Below are positions 3,485 through 40,202 of a DNA stretch of 64,000 bases, piece after piece. Under the pieces are notes generated by a model, which worked only from the letters and a program-made list of their open reading frames with translations, ran no database searches and was not told where the DNA came from. Positions within the stretch are counted from its first letter, which is position 1; each line of letters begins with the position of its first letter. The stretch is from an uncultured Acidobacteriota bacterium. GTDB lineage: Bacteria > Acidobacteriota > B3-B38 > Guanabaribacteriales > CAZYAF01. Location of the stretch: contig CAZYAF010000010.1 in NCBI GenBank assembly GCA_964645975.1, positions 67,682 to 131,681 of the forward strand, given 5' to 3'. The position numbers and the translations under genes were made by a program.

Positions 3485-3764
3485 TGGCATTATTAATCAA
3501 TAATTTAATAAAAGTTGTGTCCAGAATTTTCTGTAAATTTATCTCCAACATACTTCTTATACCAAGCAATTCATAGAATAATTAGGCTTTCCGATTTGCT
3601 GAAACACTATCATATTCAGATATCGATTTCCATCAATACTACTATTTTTCAAAAAAATCAATTCCCAGAGAATTTGTAGTTTTAACTTTTACAATTTTAT
3701 AGTAGTATTTAGTTAAGGAATGGCCATTATAAACTTTAAACCTAAATATTAAGGGAGGGTGAGA

Positions 3765-13016: not shown

Positions 13017-15237
13017 AAAGCATCTGGTAATAATCATTTTAATTGTTATCGTTATTTCATGCTTCTCCCTATATTTCTGCTCTTTTGATGAAGAGGTCTT
13101 CAAGAACCGTTCCTGTTCAACTGAATTCTATGATCGAGATGGGCAATTGCTCAGAACCTTTTTATCAGAAAAAGAGACCTACTCGGAATGGTGCCGCCTG
13201 GCAGAAATCTCTCCTCATTTCTTAAGAGCCATTGTTCTCATAGAAGACAGAAAATTTTATTCTCATCATGGAATTGTTGCGAGTTCGCTCTTCCGTGCTC
13301 TTTTACAAAATCTCCAGGAAGAGAGAATCGTGTCTGGTGGTTCCACCATTACCATGCAACTTGCCAAGCTGGTGTATGGTCATAAAAAAAGAACTATAAT
13401 AAATAAAGTCCTTGAAATCTTTGCTGCGTTGAAGTTTGATCTGCATATTTCAAAGACAGAAATTCTGGAAGAATATGTCAACCGATTGCCTTTTGGGAAT
13501 ATGATTTACGGTATCAAAGAAGCCTCTCATTTTTATTTTGACAAGGACCCCTCTCAATTATCTTTAAATCAGGCAATTCATCTGGCTCTGCTTCCAAAAT
13601 CACCTTCAAGATATAATCCCAAAAAACATATGGATACCTTACATAGAAGGTGGAAAATAGTTCTTGAAATATTTAAAGAAAATCATTACATCAACCCGGA
13701 TGAATACCAGAGAGCTGTAAACGAGGGGATTACATTTCAGATGAAAGATTATCCATTTTTAGGTCCTCATTTTATTGACCTTATCAAAGAGAAATATTTT
13801 CAAAAAGAGCTGCCGGAAAAGGTTCATACTACTTTGGACTACTCTGTACAGAAAGAGTTGGAAGGCATTATTCGAGGACATCTTGTCCGTCTAGCAAACT
13901 ACAATGTTAGATCAGCCGCAGCTATTATTATCGATAATCATACACATGAAGTTATCGGATTTATGGGCTCGCCAGATTATTTCGACCATAATATTTCAGG
14001 ATTTGTTAATCTGGCAACTTCCCTTCGGCAACCGGGATCGAGTTTGAAGCCCTTTGTTTATGCTCTGGCTTTGGAAAATGGCTATACACCTGCCACAATA
14101 ATACCGGATATTAAATTTCCCGCTAAAGGTGGATTTTTCCCTAAAAATCATGATGGGAAGGAGCACGGCCCCCTGCGATTAAGAATTGCCCTGGCATGTT
14201 CATACAATATTCCTGCTTTCTACCTGGCTATGAAATTAAAGCCGCAACAAGTAATTAAAAAGCTGAGACAAGCTGGATTTTCTTATATACGCAATGATCC
14301 GGGATTTTATGGAGAAACTATCGCCCTGGGCTCCGGTGAAGTAACCCTGCTTGATCTGGTTACTGCATATTCAGCTTTTGTTAACAAAGGGAGCCTCTAT
14401 TTACCTGTTTTTATAAAAAGCCAACCTATTAAAAGCCAACCATTATTTGATGAGAAAGTTGCCTTTTTAATCTGGGATATTCTGGCCGATCCGTCGGCAA
14501 GATTTGCCAGTTTCGGCTATAATTCCTCCATGAATCTTCCATTTCCTCTGGCCATAAAAACCGGCACATCTAAAGGATTCAGAGATAATTGGGCTATTGG
14601 AGTCAATTCCGAATACACAATTGGTGTATGGATTGGGAATCCCAATGGTGACAATATGAAAAACATAATACAGGTAGGAAATGCATCAACAATCCTGAGG
14701 GACATTTTTCTTGCAGTGCAAAAAGATTGGACAAAAGGCGATATTGAAATACCTGCTGGAATTGTCAAAAGAACCGTATGTCCACTATCGGGAGAATTGG
14801 TTACAGATAGATGCCCGGATGCTGTGGAAGAGTTTTTTGGCGAATATAATGTGCCGGTGAAACAATGTTCCTATCATATAAAAGAAAATGGAGAACTTAA
14901 AATAAAATACCCGGAGCTGTTTAAGCAATGGGCTTTAAGGAATAATCCTGAGATTAATATCACCATCAAGAAAGACAGAAAAAAATGGATTTCCTTCCCC
15001 CAAAACGGTGACTTTTTTTACATATCTGATGCTATTTCAATGAAAGACCAGCAAATTACTTTCGAAGTCATGGGGTATCGGCCTGGAGAATCTGTAGATT
15101 TTTTCCTTGACAATACACTATATGCAAGCATTATTTATCCTGAAACCATTCTTTGGACATTGCAAAGAGGGGAGCATACTCTCGCCCTAAAATCAAATGG
15201 GAAAGATATAGATAACATTAAATTCTTTGTTAGATAA
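12979..15237 (+). CDS. pbpC: Penicillin-binding protein 1C (bifunctional glycosyltransferase/transpeptidase)
   Basis: GT51 transglycosylase motifs EDRKFYSHHG and GGSTITMQLAK. Transpeptidase motifs SSLKPF (SxxK) and KTGTS. N-terminal TM anchor. Overlaps the A2M gene by 38 nt. Confidence 0.85.
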   Translation: MAEMKIGKLRLNKKHLVIIILIVIVISCFSLYFCSFDEEVFKNRSCSTEFYDRDGQLLRTFLSEKETYSEWCRLAEISPHFLRAIVLIEDRKFYSHHGIVASSLFRALLQNLQEERIVSGGSTITMQLAKLVYGHKKRTIINKVLEIFAALKFDLHISKTEILEEYVNRLPFGNMIYGIKEASHFYFDKDPSQLSLNQAIHLALLPKSPSRYNPKKHMDTLHRRWKIVLEIFKENHYINPDEYQRAVNEGITFQMKDYPFLGPHFIDLIKEKYFQKELPEKVHTTLDYSVQKELEGIIRGHLVRLANYNVRSAAAIIIDNHTHEVIGFMGSPDYFDHNISGFVNLATSLRQPGSSLKPFVYALALENGYTPATIIPDIKFPAKGGFFPKNHDGKEHGPLRLRIALACSYNIPAFYLAMKLKPQQVIKKLRQAGFSYIRNDPGFYGETIALGSGEVTLLDLVTAYSAFVNKGSLYLPVFIKSQPIKSQPLFDEKVAFLIWDILADPSARFASFGYNSSMNLPFPLAIKTGTSKGFRDNWAIGVNSEYTIGVWIGNPNGDNMKNIIQVGNASTILRDIFLAVQKDWTKGDIEIPAGIVKRTVCPLSGELVTDRCPDAVEEFFGEYNVPVKQCSYHIKENGELKIKYPELFKQWALRNNPEINITIKKDRKKWISFPQNGDFFYISDAISMKDQQITFEVMGYRPGESVDFFLDNTLYASIIYPETILWTLQRGEHTLALKSNGKDIDNIKFFVR

Positions 15238-15474: not shown

Positions 15475-16161
15475 ATGCCTAATCAAGATTTAAAAATTAC
15501 TGTTGTTATCCCCGCTATGAATGAAGAGAAAACAATTGGGGAAATTATAAAGAGATGCCAGTCTTCTGCCGATGAAATTATAGTAGTAGATGGACACTCC
15601 ACTGATAAAACCAGAGAGATTGCGGAGCAATTGGGCTCAAAAATAATATTAGACCACAAAAAAGGCAAAGGCGAAGCCATGCGCAGCAGCATTCCACATA
15701 TTAACGGTGAAATTACGGTCTTCCTCGATGCCGATGGCTCCCATGATCCCAATGATATTGCGCGTCTTATAGAACCAATTTTAAAAGATGAAGCTGACCA
15801 TGTTACCGGCTCTCGCCTTACCGGAGGCTCCAGCGAACTCCATGGCGGATTCGATGAATGTTTTCGATTAATGGGGAGTTCTTTTATCACTGCTTGCATC
15901 AATTGGCGATACAAAGTACGGTTGAGCGATAGTCAAAACGGATTTCGAGCGATAAAAACCCCCGTGCTAAAAGCGCTTGACTTGAAGGAGAATAAGACTA
16001 CAATTGAGCAAGAGATGATAATGAAGACTTTAAAGAAAGGTTATCGGATAACGGAAGTGCCTACACATGAATACAAACGGAAACATGGAGATTCTCATAT
16101 AAAGCTGTGGAAGCATTCCTTGAGATATATTTATTCATTAATAAAATATCTGTTTTTTTAA
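15475..16161 (+). CDS. GT2 glycosyltransferase, Dpm1/ArnC-like polyprenyl-phosphate sugar synthase
   Basis: 228 aa GT-A protein with VVIPAMNEEKTIGEII and a DADGSHDP DxD-type motif. Size and motifs fit polyprenol-phosphate hexose synthases. Confidence 0.7.
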   Translation: MPNQDLKITVVIPAMNEEKTIGEIIKRCQSSADEIIVVDGHSTDKTREIAEQLGSKIILDHKKGKGEAMRSSIPHINGEITVFLDADGSHDPNDIARLIEPILKDEADHVTGSRLTGGSSELHGGFDECFRLMGSSFITACINWRYKVRLSDSQNGFRAIKTPVLKALDLKENKTTIEQEMIMKTLKKGYRITEVPTHEYKRKHGDSHIKLWKHSLRYIYSLIKYLFF

Positions 16162-16224: not shown

Positions 16225-17661
16225 ATGAAAATTTTACTTCTAAACCCCCCCAGCAAAGATAACAAAAAATTCATCCGAGAAGGAAGATGCACGCAGGAAA
16301 GTAGTTTATGGACTACTGTATGGCCCCCCATATCATTGGCTACCATAGCTGCATTACTGGAAAATGATGGGCATATCGTAAAGGTCAACGATTGTTCTGC
16401 TGAAGCAATCAATCATTCTTCATTAAAAAAGATAATATATGCTTTCTCTCCTCATATAATTATCTGGAGCTCAGGCACACCTTCGATTCAAAGCGATTTG
16501 GAATTATCAAGCTTTATCAAGGCTCTTGACAGCTCAATAAAAACAGCCACTTTTGGCACCCATGTAACTGTGTTCGCGGAGGATTGTTTGCAAGAACATC
16601 CTGATCTGGATTTTATTATTAGAAACGAACCGGAATATACCATAAGGGAATTGGTCTTTGCATTGGAAAAAAGCAGAGGATACAGAACGATTAATGGACT
16701 TAGCTATAGGGATTCTGATAATCATATTATCCACAATCCGGATAGAGCGTTCATAGAAAATATAGATAAGCTTCCCATGCCAGCATGGCATCTTGTCAAC
16801 CTGGATTGCTATAGAATGCCGCTTAAAGGGCATCGTTTTTTAATCGTCTCTCCTCTACGGGGATGTCCTTATGAATGCACGTTTTGCACTACCCAGACAT
16901 ATTATGGGAATAAGGTGCGGAAACGTTCGCCTGAGCGAGTTGTGGAGGAAATAGAATATAATGTTGAGAACTATAATATTAAAAATTTCTTCTTCTGGGC
17001 GGATACGTTTACCCTGGACAAAAAATATGTTAAGAATCTCTGCAGATTGATTATGGATAGGGAATTAAACATTTCGTGGGTATGCAACAGCAGGGTTGAC
17101 ACCGTGGACGAAGAAATGTTAAAAAATATGGCTGATGCCGGCTGCTGGATGATTAGCTATGGCATAGAATCAGGCTGTCAAAAGATACTCGACATTTGTA
17201 AGAAAAAAATTACTGTGGAACAAACAAAAAAAGCAGTTGAATTAGCCAGAAATATGGGGATTAAAACAGTAGGCCATTTTATTATCGGTCTACCAGGCGA
17301 AACAATTGAAACAGCTCAAGAAACTATCAACTTTGCTCATTCCTTACCTTTAGATTTTGCTCAATTTTATTCAGCAGTACCATTTCCCGGTTCAAAGTTG
17401 TATGAGATGGCAAAACAGAATCAATGGATTGAAAATGATAACTGGGAAAAATTTAATCAAACCAGAGTGATAATGAATCTGTCAGATTTAAAACCTCATG
17501 AAGCAGATAAACTTATCAAAAAGGCTTACAAATCTTTCTATTATAGACCCCAAAAAATCTCTGCTGCACTTAAGATGATTCGATTCTCCACCATATGGAA
17601 TTCATTGGTGCAAGCTAATCATTTTATTAAATCTCTCTTAACAAAACAGGAAAGAAGCTAA
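16225..17661 (+). CDS. B12-binding domain radical SAM enzyme (class B radical SAM; candidate methyltransferase)
   Basis: CPYECTFCTT is a CxxxCxxC radical SAM cluster. The N-terminal Rossmann-like B12-binding domain begins MKILLLNPP. A paralogous N-terminus is present at 63894. Confidence 0.8.
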   Translation: MKILLLNPPSKDNKKFIREGRCTQESSLWTTVWPPISLATIAALLENDGHIVKVNDCSAEAINHSSLKKIIYAFSPHIIIWSSGTPSIQSDLELSSFIKALDSSIKTATFGTHVTVFAEDCLQEHPDLDFIIRNEPEYTIRELVFALEKSRGYRTINGLSYRDSDNHIIHNPDRAFIENIDKLPMPAWHLVNLDCYRMPLKGHRFLIVSPLRGCPYECTFCTTQTYYGNKVRKRSPERVVEEIEYNVENYNIKNFFFWADTFTLDKKYVKNLCRLIMDRELNISWVCNSRVDTVDEEMLKNMADAGCWMISYGIESGCQKILDICKKKITVEQTKKAVELARNMGIKTVGHFIIGLPGETIETAQETINFAHSLPLDFAQFYSAVPFPGSKLYEMAKQNQWIENDNWEKFNQTRVIMNLSDLKPHEADKLIKKAYKSFYYRPQKISAALKMIRFSTIWNSLVQANHFIKSLLTKQERS

Positions 17662-17666
17662 AATCA

Positions 17667-19361
17667 ATGTATACATTAGGCATTTGGGATGGCCACGATT
17701 CTGGTGCTGCTCTGCTTAAGGGAGATAAAATTCTGTTTGCCATTAATGAAGAGAGATTAACCCGAAGAAAGTTGGAGGTAGCTTTCCCCCAGAACTCAAT
17801 TGAAGCATGCTTGACCTATTGCAATTTAGCTCCTGAAGATATCAATCACATTGCCATTTCCACGTACGATTTTGCCAAAACCTTAGCCAGGCTTTTCCCC
17901 TCATTTAAAGAGGAATACTATTTGATTCGACGAAGAAAAAAAATGCCAAAAGGATTTACCTATCTCAAGAAGAAGGTGAAATATAAATTAACCGAATATA
18001 AACCGAATGGTTTTTATGAATTCATCAGCAAGCTTGTGGTAGCAAAAAAGTTAAAACAATTAGGATTTGGCGACTTTCAATTACTTTTCCTCAATCACCA
18101 TCTGTGCCACGCAGCAAGCGCTGCCTTCTGCAGCGGTTTTGACGAATGTATTGTGCTCACAATAGATGGCATTGGTGACGGTTTATCAGGAACCATCAGC
18201 ACTTTTCGAGATAATAAACTCAATCTCATTTCATCCATTTCCGGGAAGGATTCCTTCGGAATATTCTTTGAGCATGTCACCAATTTGATGAACATGAGGG
18301 AGCTTGAAGATGAAGGAAAGGTTATGGCTCTGGCCAATTACGCCTATCCCATCGATGATGAAGACAATCCTTTGATGGATTTTTTCCGCGTTGAAGGTTT
18401 AAATATTAAAGCCAAATACAGCACGTTGCAGATATACGACAGGCTCAAGAAAATCCTCTGGAAATATCCTTCTGAACAGTTTGCCTATATGGCGCAGAGA
18501 GTGTTAGAAGCGAAGATAGTTGAGTTAGTTGAAAATATAACCAAAGATACCGCCCTCCGAAAGATAGCGCTTTCCGGTGGAGTCTTTTCAAATATTAAGG
18601 TTAATATGAAAATAAAGGACCATCCACAGATTGAAGATTGCTTTGTCTTTCCGCATATGGGTGATGGTGGCTTGGCGCTGGGTGCCGCTATGTTGGCGAA
18701 TTACGAGCTTAATAGTATTTCTTCCTATAATCTTAGCGATTTATATCTCGGCCTGGAATATACTGACGAGGAAATCAAAAATACATTGGAAAAGCACACT
18801 CTTCATTTTACGCAGGTAAAAGATATCTGGAAGGAGGTTGCACAATTAATAACTCAGGGGAGCATAGTGCTGTGGTTTCAGGGAAGGATGGAAGCTGGAC
18901 CGCGAGCCTTGGGTGCTCGAAGTATTGTAGCAATGTCCGACTCTGAGAAAATCAAGGATAACTTAAATCTTAAGCTTAAAAAAAGAGTGTGGTATCAACC
19001 CTTTTGTCCCACTATGTTGGATAAAGATGCACGAGATTTGCTGCAAAATTATAATAGCAGATCGAATAAATTCATGACTATGGCTTATACGGTCAGAGAA
19101 GATATGCGAGAAGTGGTTAAAGGTGTTATAAACATAGATGGTTCCTGCCGTCCGCAGATTCTTGATAGTAATGAGACATCCTATGAAAAACTTTTGCATG
19201 AAATAAAGAAGCTAACTGGTCACGGAGTCATACTTAATACCAGTTTTAATATTCACGGTGACCCCATTGTTTGTTCCCCAGAGGATGCAGTCAAAACATT
19301 GATTAAATCGAAAGCCGATTATCTGGCAATAGGTAACTATATTGTTAAGGGGGTGGAATGA
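17667..19361 (+). CDS. NodU/CmcH family carbamoyltransferase
   Basis: N-terminus MYTLGIWDGHDSGAALLKGDKILFAINEERLTRRK is characteristic of the Carbam_trans_N family. About 560 aa, typical for O-carbamoyltransferases. Confidence 0.8.
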   Translation: MYTLGIWDGHDSGAALLKGDKILFAINEERLTRRKLEVAFPQNSIEACLTYCNLAPEDINHIAISTYDFAKTLARLFPSFKEEYYLIRRRKKMPKGFTYLKKKVKYKLTEYKPNGFYEFISKLVVAKKLKQLGFGDFQLLFLNHHLCHAASAAFCSGFDECIVLTIDGIGDGLSGTISTFRDNKLNLISSISGKDSFGIFFEHVTNLMNMRELEDEGKVMALANYAYPIDDEDNPLMDFFRVEGLNIKAKYSTLQIYDRLKKILWKYPSEQFAYMAQRVLEAKIVELVENITKDTALRKIALSGGVFSNIKVNMKIKDHPQIEDCFVFPHMGDGGLALGAAMLANYELNSISSYNLSDLYLGLEYTDEEIKNTLEKHTLHFTQVKDIWKEVAQLITQGSIVLWFQGRMEAGPRALGARSIVAMSDSEKIKDNLNLKLKKRVWYQPFCPTMLDKDARDLLQNYNSRSNKFMTMAYTVREDMREVVKGVINIDGSCRPQILDSNETSYEKLLHEIKKLTGHGVILNTSFNIHGDPIVCSPEDAVKTLIKSKADYLAIGNYIVKGVE

Positions 19362-21055
19362 AAGAAAAAGGAAAATACAAAACCAAATTAGTCATCATTT
19401 TTAGCTGTATTCTTTGGCTTGCTATTTTGTATTTATGGATTACGCATTATGAGAATTGGCAGCTCAAAGAACAGCTAAAGTTTATCTCTCCTTTATTTCT
19501 GGCAATAAATTTTTTTCTTATACTATTTTTGGCAATTCTAAATTATAAATCTATCAAAGAACTCTTCACCAATCTTCCCAGGCACATACGTATCATCGTT
19601 ATTGTAATAGCTGTTTTGGGAGCTTTAATGTCAGGGCTAATTCCTGCAAGGACCCACCGCATCTACTATGACGAAACCATCTATCAACATATCGGTCAAA
19701 ACATAGCATATCTGAATAAAGCTCAGATGTGCAATTATGGGGATATAGATTACGATGAGTTCTACTGCCACCAGAGCGAGTATAACAAAGAACCCAATGG
19801 ATACCCCTTTCTATTGAGCATTGCTTACAGGCTGTTTGGCTGCCATGAGAGTGTCTCCTATATAATGAACAATTTGATTTATGGTTTATCTCTACTAACA
19901 ATCTTCTTTATTGCATCAATCTTATTCGAAAGCCACATCGCCGGCATCTACGCATCTCTTATCTTCTGTTTCATCCCGGTAAACCTGATCTGGTCGAACA
20001 ACACCTCAGCCGAGCTGTGCTCCTCGTGCTTCGCCGGGCTCGCCCTTTTAACTATGCTTCTATTTATAAAGAAATCCAAAGTTTTGCTGTTTGTATTAGC
20101 CATCGCAATGCTCGCATTTGCCATTCAGTTCCGCCCCGAATCACCAATGATTATATTTATTGTATTTCTCTCTTTACTCCTGTTTAAAAAAGATATTTTA
20201 AAAGATGAAAAATATTTTCTCTACACTATCATCTCCCTTGTTCTGGTACTACCAGTTGCAGTGCATTTTTATGCCATGAGTGGCGAAGCCTGGGGGGCTA
20301 CTACCAGTAGTAAATTAGCCCTGAAGTATTTTTCGCATAACATCAAAACCAACGGTCTTTTTTATCTCGATAACGTAAAATTTCCCTTGTTATTTTCCAT
20401 TCTCTTTTTCATTGGCATATTCTTTCCTAAAAAATGGAAGGAGAAGTCCGTTATATTCCTGTGGTTCTTTCTATTTTGGGGAATATTCGTCATCTTCTAT
20501 GCTGGAAGCTACGAATATGGAGCGGATGTCCGCTTTTCCCTGGTATCTTATATGCCTCTGGCATTATTAGCAGGCTTTGGACTCAAGCATATGGAGGATA
20601 TCACTTCGAAATTAACCAAGCCCTTTTATCTGAGAACACTGATTGTACTTATATTAATCATAACCTTGCTTAACTTTCTTCCCTATGTCCGTGCTGTGGG
20701 TCAGGAAGCCTGGGGAGCGCGGGCGGATTATGATTATGCAAAAGAGATGGATGAATTGCTGCCTGTGGATTCCTTGATTGTGTCTCATAATCCCAATATG
20801 TTTTTCTTATGGGGAAAAAATGCTGCACAGGCATCCATGGCGACCTATGATAAGCCCCTTTTAGACAGTCTCTTTAATAGATATACCGGAGGGATTTATT
20901 TTCATTACAGCTTCTGGTGCAATGTTCCCGATAAGGTGCAAAATGAATTCTGCGAGAATATCATATGTAATTACAAAACCACCCTGATCAAGGAATATAA
21001 AGAGAAATATTACAGATATGCCCTCTATAAAATCGAAAAGAAAGAAAATGGATGA
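19358..21055 (+). CDS. GT-C fold membrane glycosyltransferase, GT39/PMT_2 (ArnT/protein O-mannosyltransferase-like)
   Basis: Polytopic membrane protein with a YYDE acidic motif in the first extracytoplasmic loop (RTHRIYYDETIYQHIG). Its start overlaps the stop of the upstream gene by 4 nt. Confidence 0.65.
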   Translation: MKEKGKYKTKLVIIFSCILWLAILYLWITHYENWQLKEQLKFISPLFLAINFFLILFLAILNYKSIKELFTNLPRHIRIIVIVIAVLGALMSGLIPARTHRIYYDETIYQHIGQNIAYLNKAQMCNYGDIDYDEFYCHQSEYNKEPNGYPFLLSIAYRLFGCHESVSYIMNNLIYGLSLLTIFFIASILFESHIAGIYASLIFCFIPVNLIWSNNTSAELCSSCFAGLALLTMLLFIKKSKVLLFVLAIAMLAFAIQFRPESPMIIFIVFLSLLLFKKDILKDEKYFLYTIISLVLVLPVAVHFYAMSGEAWGATTSSKLALKYFSHNIKTNGLFYLDNVKFPLLFSILFFIGIFFPKKWKEKSVIFLWFFLFWGIFVIFYAGSYEYGADVRFSLVSYMPLALLAGFGLKHMEDITSKLTKPFYLRTLIVLILIITLLNFLPYVRAVGQEAWGARADYDYAKEMDELLPVDSLIVSHNPNMFFLWGKNAAQASMATYDKPLLDSLFNRYTGGIYFHYSFWCNVPDKVQNEFCENIICNYKTTLIKEYKEKYYRYALYKIEKKENG

Positions 21056-21283
21056 AAGTCCGGACAAACAGCCAGATAGGCTGCGCATATATCGCTAAAA
21101 TAAGGCAATATTATTCTGATAAATAAACACAACCGGAGAATGTTGTTTCTATAATTTCAGGATTAATAAGAAATACCAATAAGCTTTTTTTACATAATTT
21201 CTATTATTTTTGATCCTGGATTAAATGGTGGACGAGCGAGAATTAAAAAAAATTAATTTTTTTGTGAAAGATACCTGAAATAA

Positions 21284-21292
21284 TGGTATAAT
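21284..21292 (+). promoter_or_regulatory. Extended -10 promoter element TGGTATAAT upstream of paralog 1
   Basis: TGnTATAAT consensus lies about 80 nt upstream of the ATG at 21370. Equivalent elements sit upstream of paralog 2 (TGATATAAT, 22899-22907) and paralog 3 (TGGTATAAT, 23928-23936). Confidence 0.5.
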
Positions 21293-21369: not shown

Positions 21370-22212
21370 ATGAAAATATTATTTTTTCGTAAAGTCAAAG
21401 CTTATAGAGTTTTTATCGTCGGTTTCATCATTCTATTAGGAGCCGTAGCTTTTTATTTGAGCTGCCAGTCGAAATCTCCTACCGATGCTGCCGTACCTTC
21501 GACGGAATCCCTTGCAGCCAGGGATGCGAAAGGTACCACTCAAACAACTACTTCCTCAAGCACAACGACGACGATAAAGCCATTGAGCTCAGCTTCTATC
21601 TCCACGACCATCATCACTTCGCGTAACCTGACCACTACCTCTACCACATCTACTACTACATCAACAACTTCAATTCCAGGTGCCACTACCTCAATAATTC
21701 ACCCGGCTAATGTGAAATTTTGCTATATTATTGGAGTTTATAAACTCATGTGGGATGGTGTTGGCACGCAGCGCGCAAAAGGAGTGTCAAAGGTACCAAA
21801 ACAGATAACCATTTACAATGGCGATACTGTGCACATTCCCTGGGAATATTGCTTGAGCTTAAATTTCTACGTTCATAATGTTGGTGGTTCTCCGGCAGAA
21901 AATGTTAAGATTATTCCTCTATCCGGGCTAGCAACTTCTCAAAATATTTACAGAGGAGTATCTGGTGATCCTACAATTCCTATGCCTGTACTTCCTGAGA
22001 TAGCATTTCTTGCAAATGATGGCGTATGTGTAAAGCATCCACTTAGTTCTTTTTATCAATGCAAGAAAATTCAACTAAATACAGTAACCTCTCAAACTAC
22101 TATTGCCTGTGTGGTGAACAAATTTAAGTTGGACTGGAAAGATGCGAGATGGGATTCAGAATTCAGTTTTACTCAGTGTTATGGATATCCGAATAATTCC
22201 GTTCCCCATTAG
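21370..22212 (+). CDS. Secreted/membrane-anchored mucin-like protein, paralog 1: signal-anchor, Ser/Thr-rich linker, Cys-containing CARDB-like C-terminal domain
   Basis: YLSCQSKSPTDA lipobox-like N-terminus. The TTQTTTSSSTTTTIKPL low-complexity S/T tract is conserved at the nucleotide level with paralog 2. C-terminal NVGGSPAENVKIIP motif. Confidence 0.7.
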   Translation: MKILFFRKVKAYRVFIVGFIILLGAVAFYLSCQSKSPTDAAVPSTESLAARDAKGTTQTTTSSSTTTTIKPLSSASISTTIITSRNLTTTSTTSTTTSTTSIPGATTSIIHPANVKFCYIIGVYKLMWDGVGTQRAKGVSKVPKQITIYNGDTVHIPWEYCLSLNFYVHNVGGSPAENVKIIPLSGLATSQNIYRGVSGDPTIPMPVLPEIAFLANDGVCVKHPLSSFYQCKKIQLNTVTSQTTIACVVNKFKLDWKDARWDSEFSFTQCYGYPNNSVPH

Positions 22213-22424
22213 TATTATCCTTTCTCAAGTGCAAAGGGCTCGATAGTTTGCTAAAACTTGAACAGAAACTATGAATAGTTATTCATAGCAAGCGGATATA
22301 TTCTGTTTAACTTCCGTGCGTTTTTAATGAGAAAGATGTGCTATTTTATTAGTGCATTTTAGAATAGCTTCCATCAGCAATAAAGTTTAAAATCTCCTTT
22401 TATTCATTCAAGTAACTAAGTTAG

Positions 22425-22690
22425 ATTGTGAAAAAGGGATGTTTGTGAACAGGGAAAATTTCTATAAATTTTTTCCTTCCTTGTATTATTCTTCTCTTAG
22501 GTAAGTGTAGTAGCCATCTATTTAAGCTGTACATCCAAATCTCCTGCAGATGCTACTGCACCTTGAAGTGAGACTTTGGCAGCCAAGGGTGCAAATAATA
22601 CAACACAAACAACCTCCTTAATCATCAAAACGACCACCGCACGGCCATCGAGCTCAGCAGCTACTTCCAGTTTACAATTTGTGTTCAGGT
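22425..22690 (+). pseudogene. Decayed fourth copy of the mucin-like paralog family. Start codons are mutated to GTG, there is an in-frame TGA, and the C-terminal domain is lost.
   Basis: Nucleotide similarity to the 5' regions of paralogs 2 and 3. Translation VAIYLSCTSKSPADATAP*SETLAAKGANNTTQTT matches the family. The upstream region is also paralogous. Confidence 0.65.
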
Positions 22691-22979
22691 GGTAGATTAA
22701 TCTTATCTTTGCGGTTGCTAAAATTTTATGAGCTCCAAAAAGAAAAAATATATTCATATAAATATCTTAGACACGATCTTGTTTTCGACTCAGAAGAAAG
22801 ACGCTCGGTATTATTTATTCCTGAACATTGCGAATTTATTTGTTGCAAAATATTTTTGGTACGTTCTCATATTTTTTTATGAAAAAAATATGTTATGGTG
22901 ATATAATATATTTTATATATAAATAGATTTTTAAAAAAGTGAGATAAACATTTTCAACCTTCAAGTAGGAGGGTATATT

Positions 22980-23792
22980 ATGAAGGATAATATTATTATA
23001 GGAAAGAAAAATTACAGCTATTGTATTTTATGTTTTATTCTTCTTATAGGAATTTTAGTTTTTTATTTAAGTTGTGAATCCAAATCTCCCACTGATGCTA
23101 CTGCAGCTTCAACTGAAACCCTGGCAGCCAGAGGTACGAAAGGCACTACTCAAACAACTACCTCCTCCAGCACAACGACGACGATAAAACCCTTGAACCC
23201 GGCTGCTACCGCCAGTACTATCGTCACCTCTCGAAACCTTACTACCACCACTATTGGCGTGCTACCGACGACTACTACAACAATAAGCCAATTACCTGAT
23301 GTGCAGTTTTGCGATATTATGGTACTTTATGAAAGGCGGAATTTTCCAATTCTTAATTCAAAGGGAGTTGTGCCACCAGAAGATCTGCCACATAAATTGT
23401 TTATTAAAAATGGTGGCACCATTAGGATTCCTATCCAGGGGTACTGCGTGAAAATATATGTCCGGGTTAAAAATGTTGGTGGTGCTCCGGCAAATAATGT
23501 TAAGGTTATTCCTGAAAACCTAATTAGTACAAAATATTTTGACAGGCGAGCTATGAATCATTTTGAACCTCCTGTGATTCACACCCTCCCAAATGATAGT
23601 TATTGTAGAGAGCATCCTGTTAGTAATATATTTTGGTATGGCTGTTGGGCTCGGGACGCTGGGCAAATTATAAAATCAACTATATTTTTACCAGAGTGCA
23701 TTGATATTTATTTGAAGCTGCAATGGCAGGGTGCAACGCATGAGCCAAAATTCCAATTTAAAATTTGTTTTTATTGGCCGTATGATGATTAA
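22980..23792 (+). CDS. Mucin-like secreted protein, paralog 2
   Basis: Same N-terminus and S/T linker as paralog 1 (FYLSCESKSPTDATAASTETLAARGTKGTTQTTTSSSTTTTIKPL). The C-terminal domain is diverged and retains KNVGGAPANNVKVIP. Confidence 0.7.
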   Translation: MKDNIIIGKKNYSYCILCFILLIGILVFYLSCESKSPTDATAASTETLAARGTKGTTQTTTSSSTTTTIKPLNPAATASTIVTSRNLTTTTIGVLPTTTTTISQLPDVQFCDIMVLYERRNFPILNSKGVVPPEDLPHKLFIKNGGTIRIPIQGYCVKIYVRVKNVGGAPANNVKVIPENLISTKYFDRRAMNHFEPPVIHTLPNDSYCREHPVSNIFWYGCWARDAGQIIKSTIFLPECIDIYLKLQWQGATHEPKFQFKICFYWPYDD

Positions 23793-24016
23793 TATCATCA
23801 TTTCCCAGTTGCAAAAGATTCGATAAAAAGCTAAAGCTTGAATAAGAGCCATAAATAGCTTTTCGCAGCTATTAAATATATTCTGCTTAGTTCATGTACA
23901 TTATTTAATGAAAAAAATGTGCTAACGTGGTATAATATATATTGCATCTAAGAATTGCCAACCGAAGAAATAGAAAAAAAGCCACTTTTTACTCCTCTAA
24001 GTAGTCAAATTAGATT

Positions 24017-24739
24017 ATGAAAGAGGAATATATGAACAGGCAAAATTTCCACTGGTATTTTATTCTTTGTTTTATTCTTATCTTGGCTGTTGTAGCTTTT
24101 TATGTAAGTTGTAAATCGAAGTCTCCTACAGAATCCACATCAGCATTGAATGGGCAGGTCGCAGGACAGAATGCGAATAGCACCACTCAGACCACCACCT
24201 CTTCCAGCACCACAACTACTGTCAAACCGGAAAGTTCACCTACCAACACCACCACTCTCATTACTTCCAGAAACCTGACAACTACCTCCACTTCTACATC
24301 CACCACAACCTCTATACCAACAACCACTACAACCACAAAAAGACCAACCACTACATCAATAGGAAATCCCTTGTTGAAATGGTGCTCTGTTACGATTAAT
24401 GGAATACCAAGAGGAGAAGTTTATGATATACCACCTAATTCAAAGAAATTAACTATTGGTATTTCCATTAAAAATGTTGGAACAGCTCCTGCAAAAAAAG
24501 TAGCTGCTAACCTATATATTGAAGATCCCTCGGATAATATATTTCCAGTATCTGATGGTTATGAATATCTGGGAACGATTCCGGCTGATAATAAGTGTTA
24601 TGGTTCATCATCAGCTTTTTATATGGAAGTCGTCGGCACTCCTTCGGATGACTGGTGCTGGATTCATATAGTAATAAACGTCCCCGGTTGTAAAAACTGC
24701 TCCATCGATTATTATATTTATATTGATGTAATATACTGA
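24017..24739 (+). CDS. Mucin-like secreted protein, paralog 3
   Basis: FYVSCKSKSPTES followed by an S/T tract and TSRNLTTTS. The C-terminal domain is diverged and Cys-rich, with KNVGTAPAKKVAANLYI. Confidence 0.7.
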   Translation: MKEEYMNRQNFHWYFILCFILILAVVAFYVSCKSKSPTESTSALNGQVAGQNANSTTQTTTSSSTTTTVKPESSPTNTTTLITSRNLTTTSTSTSTTTSIPTTTTTTKRPTTTSIGNPLLKWCSVTINGIPRGEVYDIPPNSKKLTIGISIKNVGTAPAKKVAANLYIEDPSDNIFPVSDGYEYLGTIPADNKCYGSSSAFYMEVVGTPSDDWCWIHIVINVPGCKNCSIDYYIYIDVIY

Positions 24740-25126
24740 TGCAGATTAAATTAATTGAGAAATAGCTTTAACTCTCCAGCGGAACTTTTCGCATCAATTT
24801 AACAACAAAGGAAAGGAAAATAATCTTTAATATATCTTTTTATTAAAACTCAATAATCAGGAGTCTGCTTTAACTAACCGCGTGATTTTAAAGCGTATTT
24901 TTCTTGTCCTCCCCAAACCTGCATAAGAATTTATACTTTCGCCAAAAATGAATCTTCAATATCTATAAGATTTTTTTTATTTAAGGTTATGCGAAATTGC
25001 AAATAGAAAGCAAAAATTGGGTGAACTTTTTTTAAGTATAAAATGGAAGCTATTTCTGGTCATATAAAGTAGGGACAGGCGGCAAAGCCACTTCATTATA
25101 TCAAGCACACAAAGGGCATCCGTGTA

Positions 25127-25164
25127 GGGACAGGGCTTGTCCCTGTCCGAAGCAGCTTTTCGGA
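25127..25164. other. GC-rich pair of overlapping, mutually exclusive hairpins in an AT-rich intergenic region
   Basis: GGACAGGG-cttgt-CCCTGTCC is an 8-bp stem. GTCCGAA-gcagctt-TTCGGAC is a 7-bp stem. The two share the 4 nt GTCC. Confidence 0.4.
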
Positions 25165-25386
25165 CAACCACGAGGGCTGTCTCTACAAAGTATTCCTTCG
25201 TAGAGAAAGAGCTTGATCTTAATGCACAGCAATCTCAAGGCTTGCCATTTTTAGAGGAACCGCAGCATAAGAAATCCTTTACATGAAGAATCTTTTGCGG
25301 TAATTTATAAGTTGTGAATTCAGGTATTTTTCATTTCAAGGTAGTCCCATTATTCTTAGTAATATTAAGGACGACTATTAAGTAAA

Positions 25387-27441
25387 TTGAAGCAAAATAT
25401 TAGAAGCCGTTTTTCTGGTTTTACCCTCCAGGGGAAGCAGCTTCGATTTAGTCAGCACATAGGTATAATTATCTGTTTGCTCCTTGTGGGAGTTATGATT
25501 CGCCTTTATTTTTTCTCCGGCTTTGTGCTGGGGGATGATCCCACCTATGCGCAGTACGTGTCCCTTATCCTGAAGGGAAATTATCCTAAGATTGATGAGT
25601 TTGCCGTTTTTGCCTGTCGCCCAGTGCTTCTTTTTGTTACTGCCATCCCTGTTTATCTGTTCGGCTGGCAGGAGTGGAGCTTCGTGCTCCCCATATTAAT
25701 AGCCTCTCTGCTCAATATTGTAATAATCTATTTAGCAGGCAACAGGTTCCACAGCCCACTGGCCGGAATCCTGGGAGCTCTGGCGTATCTCATCTTTCCC
25801 CTGGATGCGGTTAACGCAACAACATATAGCAATGATATTCTGCTCTCCACCTTTGTCTGGGGTGGGGGGCTTTTGCTTCTTTTCTCTTATAAGAAATTTC
25901 ATCAAAAAAAATATCTCATTTTTACTTTTTTATTAGGCTTCATTGTTGGTGCATCCGTAGGGATTAAGCTCAACGCTCTCGTAGCAGTTGTGCTCTTTTC
26001 AGGAGTTTTGGCTTTCACTTTATGGAAACAATTAAGAAAAGGAGCTTATAAGTCTCTCGTTGCCTGGAGTGTCGGATGGCTTGGAGCCAATCTTTTGCTG
26101 TGCCTTTTCTTTTTCTATCAAAGCGGGAGTTTTCTCGCACATTACCACATTGAAAAAAGGTTCAATTTAGTCCATAAGCCTTCCGGATTTATTCCCGAAG
26201 CAAGCAGCTTAAAATCATTTCTCCTGGTCTATCCAAAATTGATGCTGGGCATAGGGAAAGAAGGTCATTCAGGCTATTTCTTTCTTCCCTATGGCTACTT
26301 TTTTCTATTTTTCCTCTGCTGCTTACCCTTCGCCTTTTCCAAACGTTTCAAAGCATCCAGGTTGCCCATAGTTCTCAGCCTATTCTACTTATTCGTCATG
26401 GAATTTGCCCCCTTACAGTTGCTTCCGCATTATATTCCCATCCATCGGCTGCCGCGTTTTCTGCATATCGCCTCGATGCCCGCAGCAATGGCTATTGGCA
26501 TTACCTTTGCCGTGTTAATAAGGTTTCGCAGCAAAGTTATAAAAATATCTTCCGGGATAATTTTTCTATTCTTAATTATTTCGTCAGTTTATTGGGTTTG
26601 GACGAAAGCTTATTTTTATCAGGATTGCGCTCAGGATAGAAGATGGACCTGGGACACTATCAAGTATCTCTCAGGGAGAGAAATAATAATAGACCCGGAG
26701 ATGTTGAGCTATCTGGAGTTTCGTTCCGGTTATCAACCGGTCATACCTATAAGATTTTTGGAGCAGATGCCCAGGGCATTTTCAAAAGCTACTATAGTAA
26801 TTCTGGATGGGGCCAGGAGACCGGACCTGTATCCCGGGTATGCCAAGGCCTGGAGAAAAGACAAGTATCCTGAGGAAAAGTATATTATCGCCGAAGCGCG
26901 CTTTCCGCTCAAATCCTGGAGACAATCAAATGTGAAAATTTATTATTTGCCTCCTAATATCTCGAATGCATATCATCATACGTCAATAAAGGATATGGAA
27001 AAAATTGGCGAGCTCGATATTGGAAATCCTGACTCTGAAAGGGAGTTTGATTATACCATTGACTTGCAGACCTGGCAGGGATCCAGGGAATTTTCTTATC
27101 CGGGTAGCATTCTTTGCGAGGATGATGGAAGAGCATTCCGTGGAAAAGAAGAATTCACGCTGAACCAGCTATTTCCCAATCGATCACTCATTATTTTAAA
27201 ACGTTATGATCCTGCGGTTCGAAACCAGGAGGTAAAGGTATATTTTAATGATCAATTTATTGGCAGGTGGAAATTTGAAGAAACTCCTCTACACGGAAAG
27301 TGGAGAGAAAGTACGTTTATCATCCCTTCAGATCAGATAAAACACAAAAAAGGTACTCTCAGCTTCTTTTTTCTAAAAAGCGCTTTTGATATTAACAGTT
27401 TTTACTACTGGTTTTACCAGCCAAAGATATCTTCTCAGTGA
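25387..27441 (+). CDS. Second GT-C-type polytopic membrane glycosyltransferase-like protein (GT39/GT83-like), with a C-terminal soluble domain
   Basis: About 12 predicted TM helices. Acidic loop-1 motif FSGFVLGDDPTYAQY. C-terminal ~250-aa periplasmic-type domain. The start is uncertain: a TTG at 25387 in the track, with the first ATG at 25495 falling inside TM1. Confidence 0.5.
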   Translation: MKQNIRSRFSGFTLQGKQLRFSQHIGIIICLLLVGVMIRLYFFSGFVLGDDPTYAQYVSLILKGNYPKIDEFAVFACRPVLLFVTAIPVYLFGWQEWSFVLPILIASLLNIVIIYLAGNRFHSPLAGILGALAYLIFPLDAVNATTYSNDILLSTFVWGGGLLLLFSYKKFHQKKYLIFTFLLGFIVGASVGIKLNALVAVVLFSGVLAFTLWKQLRKGAYKSLVAWSVGWLGANLLLCLFFFYQSGSFLAHYHIEKRFNLVHKPSGFIPEASSLKSFLLVYPKLMLGIGKEGHSGYFFLPYGYFFLFFLCCLPFAFSKRFKASRLPIVLSLFYLFVMEFAPLQLLPHYIPIHRLPRFLHIASMPAAMAIGITFAVLIRFRSKVIKISSGIIFLFLIISSVYWVWTKAYFYQDCAQDRRWTWDTIKYLSGREIIIDPEMLSYLEFRSGYQPVIPIRFLEQMPRAFSKATIVILDGARRPDLYPGYAKAWRKDKYPEEKYIIAEARFPLKSWRQSNVKIYYLPPNISNAYHHTSIKDMEKIGELDIGNPDSEREFDYTIDLQTWQGSREFSYPGSILCEDDGRAFRGKEEFTLNQLFPNRSLIILKRYDPAVRNQEVKVYFNDQFIGRWKFEETPLHGKWRESTFIIPSDQIKHKKGTLSFFFLKSAFDINSFYYWFYQPKISSQ

Positions 27442-27480: not shown

Positions 27481-28311
27481 CTACTTGAGTTTCCTGCGCA
27501 TCAGATTAAGTAAGTCAATTCTATTCTTGCTGTTAATTGTTGGTGCATTAAGGATTTGCATTTCATCAAATGCAGCGGGGATTACCTGTTCATCACTTAC
27601 CTTCTGGATAACAAATGTTTGCCCGGTAAAGCCACTTTGATAGAATCTTCCATCAATTCTATCAAATAACTTATTCGGCTCCGCTTCAATAATAACCGCT
27701 GTATACATTCTCCTTTTATCAGCCCACATCATGTCAATAGTATCGTCAGTTTTATATCTACCGGTAATCTCATCATTATAGATTGTGTGACCTTTATATT
27801 TCCAGATTACTTCGCCGCTCAGGTCTCTGTCCTGCTGAAGCAAATATAACTTCAACGCAACGTCTTCTCCATCCCAATTGAGCCAACCAGTCCAGCCTCC
27901 AGTTAACGCTCTTACAGTAATCGTTTTTGATGAGCTGGTTTCTGTTCCATTATTATCAGTAACGGTTAACGTTGCCTGGAATGCTCCAGCGGACCTATAG
28001 ATGTGGTTTACTATTTTGCCCTGTTTGGAATTCCCGTCTCCAAAATCCCATTTATAGCTGGCGATGGATTTGCTGCTCAACGATTGGCTTTTAAGAGTGC
28101 CACTGGTGTCGCTGGAGCCGCTGGCATCGAATTGTACTTTAAAAGGACAATTGCCTTTTGCAGCACTAACAGCGAAGGTGGATGTTGGGGGTGTATTGGG
28201 TTGTGTAGGGCTTGCAGGAGATGATTCTTTATCATCACAAGCAATGAAGGCAAGCAGTGAAAGGAGACAAATTAATAATAGCTTAATATACCTCATGTCC
28301 CTCCCTTTCAT
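27481..28311 (-). CDS. PKD-domain lipoprotein
   Basis: Lipobox LAFIACDD. PKD signature YKWDFGDGNSKQG...ATLTVTDNNG. AAGGGAGGG RBS near the internal ATG at 28296. Confidence 0.7.
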   Translation of the reverse strand: MKGRDMRYIKLLLICLLSLLAFIACDDKESSPASPTQPNTPPTSTFAVSAAKGNCPFKVQFDASGSSDTSGTLKSQSLSSKSIASYKWDFGDGNSKQGKIVNHIYRSAGAFQATLTVTDNNGTETSSSKTITVRALTGGWTGWLNWDGEDVALKLYLLQQDRDLSGEVIWKYKGHTIYNDEITGRYKTDDTIDMMWADKRRMYTAVIIEAEPNKLFDRIDGRFYQSGFTGQTFVIQKVSDEQVIPAAFDEMQILNAPTINSKNRIDLLNLMRRKLK

Positions 28312-39671: not shown

Positions 39672-40202
39672 ATGAACCAAATAGTTGACATAAAAAAGGA
39701 TGAAAATAATTTTAAATGGTATGCCATTTATACACGGAGCCGACATGAGTTTAAAGTCAACAAAGAATTATCTCGAAAGCAATTTGACACATTCCTTCCC
39801 GTAGCTAATTCTTTACGGCGCTGGAAAGATAGAAAAAAGTATATAGAAACTCCCTTATTTCCCGGTTATTTATTCATAAATTGTCAGATGGATAATTATA
39901 AACATTTAGAGATTCTGAAGACTAAAGGTGTGGTGCGAGTTTTGGGGATAAATAAAAAGGAGTTATCTACCATCCCGCATGAAGAGATAGAATCGATCAG
40001 GATATTAACCGAGAATAACGCCACCATTAACTCCCATCCCTATGTGAAAGAGGGGAGTAGCGTAGAGATAATAAGCGGACCTTTAGCTGGCGCTAAGGGG
40101 ATTTTGATCGAAAAGGACGTGTATAAATCCACCATAGTTGTATCTATTCACCTTTTAGGAAGAAGCATCTCGGTGGAAGTAGATAGCTGTGATATCAGGT
40201 AA
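39672..40202 (+). CDS. NusG-family specialised paralog (UpxY/LoaP-like transcription antiterminator), copy 1
   Basis: NGN domain KWYAIYTRSRHEFKVNKEL...FPGYLFIN. C-terminal KOW-like segment GSSVEIISGPLAGAKGILIEK. Confidence 0.75.
   Translation: MNQIVDIKKDENNFKWYAIYTRSRHEFKVNKELSRKQFDTFLPVANSLRRWKDRKKYIETPLFPGYLFINCQMDNYKHLEILKTKGVVRVLGINKKELSTIPHEEIESIRILTENNATINSHPYVKEGSSVEIISGPLAGAKGILIEKDVYKSTIVVSIHLLGRSISVEVDSCDIR

Follow-up and report, generated by a model that had tools for sequence, protein, structure and literature searches.

Among the genes of a 64-kb window (the whole stretch of DNA analysed here) from an uncultured Baltic Sea sediment bacterium lies a tandem array of paralogs encoding mucin-like proteins, at positions 21370-24739, the organization of which raises an unusual question: why should a low-complexity, threonine- and serine-rich linker be the most conserved module of a protein family whose folded domain runs free, and why should the genes encoding such proteins be located between two genes for GT-C glycosyltransferases? 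Sequence identities, substitution ratios and copy-number data together support the earlier proposal that the array encodes a diversifying family of envelope proteins with a conserved anchor and linker and with variable C-terminal heads. The explanation to which we assign somewhat better than even chances is that these proteins are lipoproteins in which an O-glycosylated linker, hereafter the stalk, carries the diversifying head.

Architecture of the array and its products

Three intact paralogs and one decayed copy are found in the array, as the first-pass annotation of this DNA had reported, and both 50-nucleotide stretches quoted in that report are present. All four copies lie on the + strand. 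The first, c1 (21370-22212; 280 amino acids (aa)), begins with a predicted signal peptide (21370-21462) followed by a putative lipobox Cys codon (21463-21465); its stalk occupies 21463-21702 and its beta-sandwich head 21703-22209, and orthologs are found in three related loci, L007, L008 and L010. The second, c2 (22980-23792; 270 aa), has the corresponding Cys codon at 23073 and its head from approximately 23292, and is identical to the database protein P0015. The third, c3 (24017-24739; 240 aa), with its Cys codon at 24110 and a short head from approximately 24365, groups with family members dispersed elsewhere in the genome; an alternative start, an ATG at 24032 (235 aa) that lies behind an AGAGGA ribosome-binding site, is the start used in the Joint Genome Institute (JGI) gene call. 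The decayed copy, at approximately 22440-22690, retains signal, lipobox and stalk and is without a head: it carries a 4-nt insertion near 22501 and a TGA codon at 22564-22566, and ends after the linker. The 4-nt frameshift is also found in L007 and L008, with approximately 85-87% identity over the spacer among the three loci, and the premature TGA is specific to the window; because the same frameshifted remnant occurs in two relatives, the pseudogene is old. A JGI-called gene of 73-79 aa lies antisense to it (22518-22757, - strand) and is probably spurious. No further occurrence of the FY[LV]SC/SKSPT motif shared by these proteins was found in the 64-kb window.

Alignment of the copies bears out the claim that the N-terminus and linker are conserved even at the nucleotide level and that the C-terminal domains are diverged. 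Specifically, nucleotide identity within the conserved stalk is 78% for c1 and c2, 64% for c1 and c3 and 62% for c2 and c3, and the corresponding values for the C-terminal domain are 53%, 43% and 46%. The reported NVGxxPAxxV core is likewise found in c1, c2 and c3. The different Cys patterns ascribed to the three heads are only partly different, as four Cys columns (C118, C220, C231 and C247) align in all three.

Among 5.8 billion proteins searched, 32 relatives were recovered, all of them metagenomic and several located on one contig. None of the 32 is assigned to a Pfam or NCBIfam family, and the family, unannotated as it is, is apparently confined to one uncultured lineage. The 32 members follow a common plan in which a basic n-region, approximately 20 hydrophobic residues and a lipobox-like FY[LV]S-C are followed by an invariant SKSPT, a disordered Thr/Ser-rich stalk of 70-90 aa and a Cys-containing beta-sandwich head of 125-170 aa. 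Within the stalk are two conserved blocks, TTQTTTSSSTTTT[IV]KP and NTTT[LI]ITSR[NT]LTTTS, after which a short variable Thr-rich segment leads to the head; the latter starts at a nearly invariant Cys and displays the motifs xKNxGxxPAxNV and (L/I)PxDxxC. Residues S31, C32, S34, S36 and P37 are invariant across the 32-member alignment, as is a TSRxLT motif. Consistent with this plan, the AlphaFold2 model of c1, built from the family alignment, consists of a helix (residues 3-33), a disordered stretch (39-101; predicted local distance difference test (pLDDT) below 50) and a beta-sandwich (115-272; core pLDDT 85-97), and c3 is modelled with the same layout, namely a disordered stalk at approximately 37-107 (pLDDT <50) and a seven-strand sandwich at 120-237. 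Dominated by Thr and Ser, without secondary structure and located downstream of a signal peptide, the stalk has the properties of an S/T-rich disordered glycosylation substrate. Two other ways of classifying the stalk were set aside: N-glycosylation at its NLT sequon, the Asn being replaced by Thr or Tyr in several members, and membership of the Trypanosomatid mucin-like glycoprotein family PF01456, for which the best score (28.6 bits, c3) lies below the cut-off of 34.7 and the match covers the biased-composition stalk only.

We read FY[LV]SC as a probable lipobox, with lipidation at the invariant Cys, because other exported proteins encoded in the window use similar lipoboxes with long h-regions (14-20 residues): ITLSC in a beta-lactamase-like protein, VTIGC in an alpha-2-macroglobulin and AFIAC in a PKD-domain protein. 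All 32 family members display the sequence features of a lipoprotein, including an MK..K/R n-region, approximately 20 hydrophobic residues, Ser at -1 and the invariant Cys. Two features speak against a lipid anchor, namely the non-canonical Tyr at -3, which violates the PROSITE lipobox rule PS51257, and an h-region of approximately 21 residues, long enough for an uncleaved anchor. Both would be accommodated if the N-terminus were an uncleaved signal anchor, making these bitopic inner-membrane proteins (N-in, C-out) with the Cys at the membrane interface; in keeping with such a topology, the h-region is modelled as part of one continuous helix (3-33), and a relative with a related head, encoded in locus L016, is anchored by an internal transmembrane helix. 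We regard a signal anchor as unlikely, given that in 32 of 32 members the h-region ends in the same Cys, preceded by Ser at -1 and Leu/Val at -2, that in the alpha-2-macroglobulin and beta-lactamase-like protein of the window an h-region of 17-20 residues leads up to IGC and LSC, respectively, and that a protein of an Ignavibacteriaceae neighbourhood discussed below carries the lipobox FFSC. The type of anchor is a question independent of that of glycosylation.

With regard to the heads, the shared C-terminal fold that had been presumed is found in the AlphaFold models, in which the c1 and c3 heads are both beta-sandwiches matching the same Ig-like folds in the PDB. Foldseek matches of the c1 head to Ig-like structures are weak (E >= 0.03), and those of the c3 head are borderline, the best being to TRAP-beta (8e-4), with PapD-like chaperones and ester-bond adhesin domains also represented; RhoGDI, PapD-like proteins and the Ig domains of lacto-N-biosidase are common to both match lists. 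Matches of the c3 head to the RhoGDI and GM2-activator folds reach target-normalised template modelling scores of up to 0.67 (RhoGDI 0.6-0.67) at E ~1e-3, and the lipid-binding head that these modelled similarities would suggest is a lead only. As for the likeness to CARDB/adhesin folds claimed earlier, the Pfam CARDB profile PF07705 (gathering score 22.7 bits) gives 14.4 bits for c3 (E=0.045) and no match for c1 or c2, and reaches two of the 32 family members, both below threshold (best E=0.024). A profile of the head domain, compared with 1.84 billion representative proteins, recovered 13 at E <= 1e-3. Eight of these are short single-domain proteins (the known members P0002, P0008, P0009, P0012 and P0016, the truncated relative P0035, and P0038 and P0040); P0037 (283 aa, no Pfam family) has a single head match at E=2.6e-9; and the other four are large proteins, P0039, P0041 and P0042 with DUF11/CARDB repeats and P0036 with DUF4082. 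TRAP_beta is also found in P0039 and P0041, and NPCBM_assoc in P0041 and P0042. The CARDB/DUF11 repeat proteins were reached by the head profile only at E values of 1e-4 to 1e-5. What the comparisons leave of the claim is a possible remote kinship of profile and fold; CARDB membership as such is not established. On profile and model comparisons, the heads probably share an E-set Ig-like sandwich remotely related to CARDB/DUF11, with which (and with TRAP-beta) they have in common a predicted seven- to nine-strand beta-sandwich and the xKNxGxxPAxNV strand-turn motif. They differ from CARDB/DUF11 domains in scoring below the Pfam threshold, in carrying two to eight cysteines and in occurring as a single copy on a stalk, not as tandem repeats. 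Long loop insertions are present in the c1- and c2-type heads.

Family diversity, selection and exchange

A syntenic gene order, comprising a GT2 glycosyltransferase, a B12-binding radical-SAM enzyme, a carbamoyltransferase, a PMT_2 protein, the array, a second PMT_2 protein and an oppositely oriented PKD-domain gene, is found in four lineages, represented by the window, L007, L008 and L010. The content of the array varies among them, in agreement with the copy-number variation that had been anticipated in relatives: c1, the pseudogene, c2 and c3 in the window; c1, the same pseudogene and c2, without c3, in L007 and L008; and at least three c1-type copies before the contig ends in L010. Further members are dispersed on other contigs from the same samples (L004, L012, L013, L014 and L015), some of them singly and, at one locus, as a pair. 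When contigs are joined on the strength of shared samples, GC content and an identical N-terminal module, a genome probably carries at least eight members. Across the family, stalks are on average 66% identical, no pair falling below 47%, and heads 25%, the least similar pair sharing 9%, with signals in between at 43%; when grouped at 45% identity, the heads of the 32 proteins fall into approximately 17 clusters, and signal-peptide types occur in combination with several head types. A more distant relative is encoded in L016 (8731-9876, - strand), a locus without the array, where it lies beside the gene for the second PMT_2 protein. Anchored by its transmembrane helix, this protein has Thr-rich stalks at two separate places, and its C-terminal domain is akin to the family head (hhalign probability 86%, E=5.5e-6), with the motifs LRFCY..., KNVGGAPADNVE and IDNNGSC; its layout may resemble an ancestral form of the family or an alternative one.

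Nonsynonymous to synonymous substitution ratios (dN/dS; Nei-Gojobori method), calculated from orthologs in the same four lineages, are 0.04-0.20 for six flanking genes, 0-0.25 for the stalk and 0.30-0.94 for the heads, such that the elevated ratio expected of the heads is indeed observed in comparison with both stalk and flanking genes; for c2 as a whole gene the ratio is 0.28-0.33. When nonsynonymous and synonymous differences in head and stalk are compared within the same gene pair, p ranges from 1e-4 to 9e-9 in seven of nine pairs, with values of 0.008 and 0.067 in the remaining two. Recent paralogs in L010 have head ratios of 1.46, 1.83 and 2.21 (one-sided Fisher p=0.20, 0.021 and 0.008, respectively). 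Both significant comparisons involve one L010 copy, c1c, which is without four of six head cysteines and may be decaying, and since significance depends on this copy, positive selection on the heads is suggestive, not proven. Within the c1 group, predicted loops vary more than strands do (p=0.007), and 52 of 61 stalk positions are invariant.

The suggestion that the linker has been homogenised by gene conversion is contradicted by silent sites. At 4-fold degenerate positions, c1 and c2 differ at 20 of 35 sites in the stalk (0.57) and at seven of 21 in the head (0.33); divergence between the c1 and c3 and the c2 and c3 stalks is 0.61-0.76, which amounts to saturation; and the stalks of paralogs from the same genome are no closer to one another than those from different genomes. 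As stalk silent sites are as diverged as those elsewhere, no linker conversion need be assumed, and the nucleotide similarity of the stalks is the result of purifying selection on the protein, as reflected in the low stalk dN/dS. Orthologous c1 genes present a different picture: between the window and L008, silent divergence is 0.41 in the stalk, 0.12 in the head and 0.20 in the flanks (p ~0.002), and the raised stalk value could result from patchy exchange with other family members or from a higher mutation rate in an ACN-rich tract. In addition, c1 heads from L010 (7127-10045) differ from those of the window and L008 at 0.15-0.19 of 4-fold sites, as compared with 0.54 for the flanking GT2, radical-SAM and carbamoyltransferase genes (p=7e-5 and 8e-7 against the c1 heads), the upstream PMT_2 gene being intermediate. 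Because the c1 heads are less diverged at silent sites than the flanks, array genes seem to have moved between lineages at a later date than the divergence of the flanks. A diversity-generating retroelement was considered as a source of head variation and rejected: the heads are only 43-53% identical, the differences affect all bases, and no reverse transcriptase was found among the 30 open reading frames (ORFs) scanned with Pfam (of 44 of at least 150 aa).

A putative glycosylation cassette around the array

The genes that surround the array point to glycosylation outside the cytoplasm. Upstream, on the + strand, are genes encoding a GT2 glycosyltransferase resembling polyprenol-phosphate-sugar synthases (15475-16161; 228 aa; Pfam Glycos_transf_2, 2.6e-26), a B12-binding radical-SAM enzyme (16225-17661; 478 aa; Pfam Radical_SAM and B12-binding) nearest to HpnJ (NCBIfam 3.4e-88, below cut-off), a NodU/CmcH-type carbamoyltransferase (17667-19361; 564 aa; Pfam Carbam_trans_N and Carbam_trans_C; NCBIfam NodU 4.6e-34, below cut-off) and a GT-C glycosyltransferase, PMTa (19358-21055; 565 aa; Pfam PMT_2, 47.7 bits against a cut-off of 26.1). 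Downstream, also on the + strand, lies the gene for a second GT-C enzyme, PMTb (25387-27441; 684 aa, with a C-terminal extra domain; PMT_2, 32.1 bits against 26.1). NCBIfam matches of the GT2 enzyme, all below curated cut-offs, include AglJ (9e-47), PpgS and dolichyl-phosphate-hexose transferase, and its sequence matches in the PDB include the Pyrococcus furiosus dolichol-phosphate-mannose synthase 5mlz (7e-17) and ArnC (6e-13). PMTa contains the motif H100-R-I-Y-Y-D105-E106, invariant in 22 homologs, and PMTb a G-D-D motif after its first transmembrane helix; both proteins thereby combine the multiple membrane spans, family match and acidic first-loop motif expected of GT-C enzymes. Glycosylation on the periplasmic side of the membrane typically relies on a polyprenol-phosphate-sugar synthase paired with GT-C enzymes.

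According to the glycosylated-stalk model, the family members would be exported by Sec and lipidated at the lipobox Cys, after which the stalk would be O-glycosylated on the periplasmic side by PMTa and/or PMTb, with a polyprenol-phosphate-linked sugar from the upstream GT2 enzyme serving as donor; the carbamoyltransferase and the B12 radical-SAM enzyme may modify this sugar. The stalk would thereby become a stiff, protease-resistant, mucin-like structure keeping the variable head at a distance from the membrane. Conservation of the stalk sequence would reflect recognition by the glycosylation machinery, lipoprotein sorting, or both, and the heads would have diversified through tandem duplication, fast loop-concentrated substitution, gain and loss of copies and the exchange of array genes between lineages. 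Among the roles put forward in the first-pass annotation (adhesin, phage or predator decoy, and glycosylation carrier), the last is the best fit because of the flanking GT-C and GT2 genes, a context of which that annotation made no use; diversification of the heads would fit contacts with changing partners outside the cell, for instance ligands, phages or predators. The association of GT-C genes with Thr-rich stalks occurs three separate times, in the array, in L015, where a third PMT_2 gene, different from the other two, is directly followed by a dispersed member, and in L016 with its stalk protein. Given these associations and the retention of the array in four lineages, its location is probably not purely accidental. 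A further candidate substrate of the same machinery may be the PKD-domain lipoprotein encoded downstream of PMTb (27481-28311, - strand; lipobox FIAC), the position of which is kept in the window, L007 and L008. A short Ser/Thr/Pro-rich linker, CDDKESSPASPTQPNTPPTST, is observed in this protein right after the Cys.

Distribution of the cassette suggests that it is older than the array. Homologs of PMTa number at least 458 (42-51% identity) and are spread over several phyla, some of them coming from named Desulfobacteraceae, Thermodesulfobacteriota and Ignavibacteria metagenome-assembled genomes (MAGs). In a Thermodesulfobacteriota MAG (L017, 4144-9785), genes for GT2, radical-SAM, carbamoyltransferase and PMT_2 proteins occur together, and in an Ignavibacteriaceae MAG (L018, 5446-9668) GT2, carbamoyltransferase and PMT_2 genes occur beside a radical-SAM gene unrelated to that of the window. 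L016 (490-8392) encodes the GT2 enzyme, the B12 radical-SAM enzyme and the carbamoyltransferase of the cassette along with a PMTa 69% identical to that of the window, with a gap of only 300 bp between PMTa and PMTb. As the cassette occurs elsewhere without the array, and as PMTa and PMTb are adjacent in L016, the array appears, from gene order, to be a lineage-specific insertion between two GT-C genes of an older, widespread cassette. PMTb, the homologs of which number 46 and are absent from L017 and L018, is by reason of this rarity a better candidate than PMTa for the protein-directed transferase; the most distant of its homologs also carry PF02366 (PMT). A literature search found no description of a GT2/radical-SAM/carbamoyltransferase/PMT_2 cassette.

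Comparison with characterized systems reveals both likenesses and differences. The arrangement most similar to that of the window is the Streptococcus mutans cnm-pgfS-pgfM1-pgfE-pgfM2 locus, in which a GT-A enzyme and two GT-C enzymes act, outside the cytoplasm, on a Thr-rich region in the protein encoded next to them, which is thereby stabilised against proteases (PMC5856776; PMC12041528). In both cases, a gene for a Thr-rich substrate lies beside one GT-A/GT2 and two GT-C genes, and the GT2 enzyme of the window matches PgfS weakly in NCBIfam (3.8e-8). The Pgf system differs in that its host is Gram-positive, its substrate is an LPxTG wall-anchored adhesin with C-terminal Thr-rich repeats, an epimerase takes the place of the carbamoyltransferase and B12 radical-SAM enzyme, and a single substrate gene is found in place of a diversifying array; in the window, the stalk is conserved, non-repetitive and located directly after the lipobox. 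Similarly, streptococcal GtrB and PgtC2 add glucose to Ser/Thr-rich disordered regions, both in membrane proteins and in lipoproteins such as PrsA, with protection from proteolysis (PMC12041528). As in the model proposed here, S/T-rich disordered regions outside the cytoplasm are the target of a polyprenol-phosphate-sugar synthase working with a GT-C enzyme; the streptococcal substrates differ in being disordered appendages on housekeeping proteins, the genes of which are not clustered with those of the enzymes and do not form a family with variable heads. In the actinobacterial Ppm1/Pmt (GT39) system, exported proteins, secreted lipoproteins among them, are O-mannosylated in S/T-rich stretches by a GT-C enzyme that works with a GT2 polyprenol-phosphate-mannose synthase. 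GT39 PMT proteins are encoded in more than 3,800 bacterial genomes (PMC11727336). PMTa and PMTb differ from these in matching PMT_2 (PF13231) and not PMT proper, PF02366 being found only in the distant PMTb homologs, and the organism of the window differs in being a diderm with additional sugar-modifying enzymes.

Several observations weigh against glycosylation of the stalk, for which the case is built on gene neighbourhood and analogy. Neither PMTa, queried as a single sequence and as a 22-sequence profile, nor PMTb has a sequence match to solved GT-C structures, and no flippase gene was identified in the cassette. In L017 and L018 the genes that come after the cassette encode small lipoproteins, unrelated to the family and not rich in Thr, and the occurrence of the cassette in other phyla without a Thr-rich protein implies that the ancestral acceptor was something else; L016, moreover, has PMTa and PMTb nearly contiguous. 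Half of the dispersed members are not beside a GT-C gene, those of L004, L012, L013 and L014 being the ones that do not adjoin one. These same observations would be explained if the stalk were an unglycosylated spacer, or were modified by enzymes encoded elsewhere, the cassette decorating a non-protein acceptor such as lipid A, lipopolysaccharide core or a glycolipid and the array having merely landed in a permissive intergenic spot between two GT-C genes. Such an explanation, which is also favoured by the excess of well-conserved PMTa homologs over the approximately 35 family members and by the JGI annotation of PMTb homologs as ArnT-like, is one we consider doubtful yet deserving of serious attention. 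Against it stand the three separate associations of GT-C genes with Thr-rich stalks, and a pure spacer should keep its composition, not 66% identity with invariant motifs. Furthermore, an anchor followed by an S/T-rich stretch matches the known substrates of GT-C protein O-glycosyltransferases (PMC12041528; PMC12586580).

The account given in the first-pass annotation, an array of the antigenic-variation style with a conversion-homogenised linker and positively selected adhesin or decoy heads, draws on the conserved N-terminal module and variable heads, on the ratios above one among recent paralogs, on the pairing of signal-peptide types with several head types and on the possible patchy exchange signalled by the c1 ortholog stalks. 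Its chances appear slim, as stalk silent sites are near saturation (0.57-0.76) and no more alike within a genome than between genomes, and as no switching device was detected: Tandem Repeats Finder reported just a weak 9- and 15-nt periodicity in the c3 stalk, a search for inverted repeats or an invertible promoter gave only short chance-level matches, no silent cassettes were found, and each gene has its own promoter-like site. The paralogs also have no match in PADLOC or PHROGs. The Vlp/Vsp proteins of Mycoplasma and the Vsp/Vlp/Mlp proteins of Borrelia are paralogous lipoproteins encoded in tandem, conserved in the 5' region and signal peptide and hypervariable in the mature part. The array differs from these in being without detected phase- or antigenic-variation machinery, in having a promoter-like site for each copy and in that the conserved part extends through a Thr-rich stalk of 80 residues. 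That the array should be an assembly artefact, or consist of decaying non-functional ORFs, has a very small probability. The pseudogene and the cysteine-depleted c1c of L010 are what such an explanation can call upon; an artefact, the other circumstance under which the original interpretation was to fail, is very unlikely because 17.7 kb of the region are 100% identical in three assemblies, two from JGI and one from Logan (SRR3091743), and the heads, at 43-53% identity, are too diverged for mis-collapse. Decay is opposed by ORFs that are intact in four lineages and by the dN/dS of c2 (0.28-0.33) and of the stalk (near 0.1-0.2).

GT-C protein O-glycosylation is well documented in Actinobacteria and lately in streptococci; to our knowledge, it is almost unexplored in diderm environmental bacteria. 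Accordingly, S/T-rich substrates beside GT2 and GT-C enzymes are already known from Gram-positives and variable lipoprotein families from pathogens, and what is new is the diderm sediment host, the low-complexity stalk as most conserved module, and the insertion of a diversifying array into a conserved cassette, as yet uncharacterised, with genes for a carbamoyltransferase and a B12 radical-SAM enzyme. As candidate substrates are encoded here next to donor-synthesis genes and two GT-C enzymes, the locus constitutes a directly testable system. A constrained linker joined to a free-running folded domain is contrary to what is usually expected of low-complexity linkers, and points to a recognition code in mucin-like sequence. 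The cross-phylum four-gene cassette, unstudied according to the literature search made here, would be of general interest were its acceptor and sugar found. A still bolder combination of proposals can be formulated, which as a whole we regard as rather improbable: that the stalk is a dedicated recognition signal for a glycosylation pathway not yet characterised (GT2, B12 radical-SAM, carbamoyltransferase and GT-C) and widespread in anaerobic sediment bacteria; that this pathway was recruited, via the second GT-C enzyme, to place a carbamoylated or radical-SAM-modified sugar on proteins; and that the stalk-plus-head genes, some of them with the double-hairpin element described below, form a mobile, head-swapping surface display exchanged between lineages.

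Flanking sequences and the wider window

Each intact copy is preceded, as had been stated, by its own extended -10 element, TGGTATAAT at 21284 and 23928 and TGATATAAT at 22899. The promoter-like sites, all on the + strand and recognized by consensus match only, comprise GTGAAA, a 17-nt spacer and TGgTATAAT for c1 (21264-21292), ATGAAA, a 17-nt spacer and TGaTATAAT for c2 (22879-22907; kept in L007 and L008), and ATGAAA, a 17-nt spacer and TGgTATAAT for c3 (23908-23936). The total of promoter-like sites in the scan is not above that of shuffled sequences (19 against 16.4), and these three + strand sites alone combine an extended -10 with a homologous position. No intrinsic terminators were predicted between the array genes. 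Paralogy of the intergenic segments, also claimed earlier, holds for the 3' flanks of c1 and c2 (67% identical, z=25.6) and for the 5' flanks of c2, c3 and the pseudogene (65-68%, z ~10), and fails for the 5' flank of c1 and the 3' flank of c3, which have no significant similarity to other flanks. From these alignments, the duplicated unit appears to take in flanking DNA.

Downstream of c3, at 25069-25203 (+ strand), lie at least two copies of a GC-rich double-hairpin repeat element with a predicted fold of -50.7 kcal/mol (z = -3.4). The element, approximately 60-80 nt in length, has the core CCGTGTAGGGACAGG-GCTTG-CCCTGTCC-GAAG-CAGCTTTAGCTGC followed by a T-rich tail, and compensatory changes between copies are found in both stems. 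It also occurs in L014 (1020-1404), L004 (9132-9683) and L015 (9823-9901 and 11033-11092). In the 250 kb examined, a covariance model gave 13 hits, all within approximately 1 kb of a c3-type gene, and none in loci without c3; the element has no Rfam match, and Rfam and tRNA scans of the window found nothing. It may be an element resembling repetitive extragenic palindromes or miniature inverted-repeat transposable elements that travels with the family genes, or a terminator or regulatory RNA.

Elsewhere in the window, the gene for the alpha-2-macroglobulin (1920 aa; lipobox TIGC) overlaps that for a PBP1C-type penicillin-binding protein (7254-15237, + strand), and the two lie immediately upstream of the glycosylation cassette in the window and in L007; they constitute the known A2M-Pbp1C gene pair. 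An exopolysaccharide locus at 33389-63854 (+ strand) encodes a Wzz/tyrosine-kinase, CpsB, two Wzy_C proteins, a Polysacc_synt flippase, a sulfotransferase and methyltransferases. It also includes tandem NusG-like paralogs (39672-40202 and 40566-41102) with the common motif KWYAIYTRSRHEFKVN, which resemble locus-specific antiterminators of the UpxY type. Finally, GC content is 0.46-0.51 in the first 6000 positions as compared with 0.28-0.41 elsewhere in the window, and this segment (1-6000), which contains amidohydrolase, beta-lactamase-TPR and BNR/sortilin genes and GTG starts, may be foreign DNA or a differently constrained segment.

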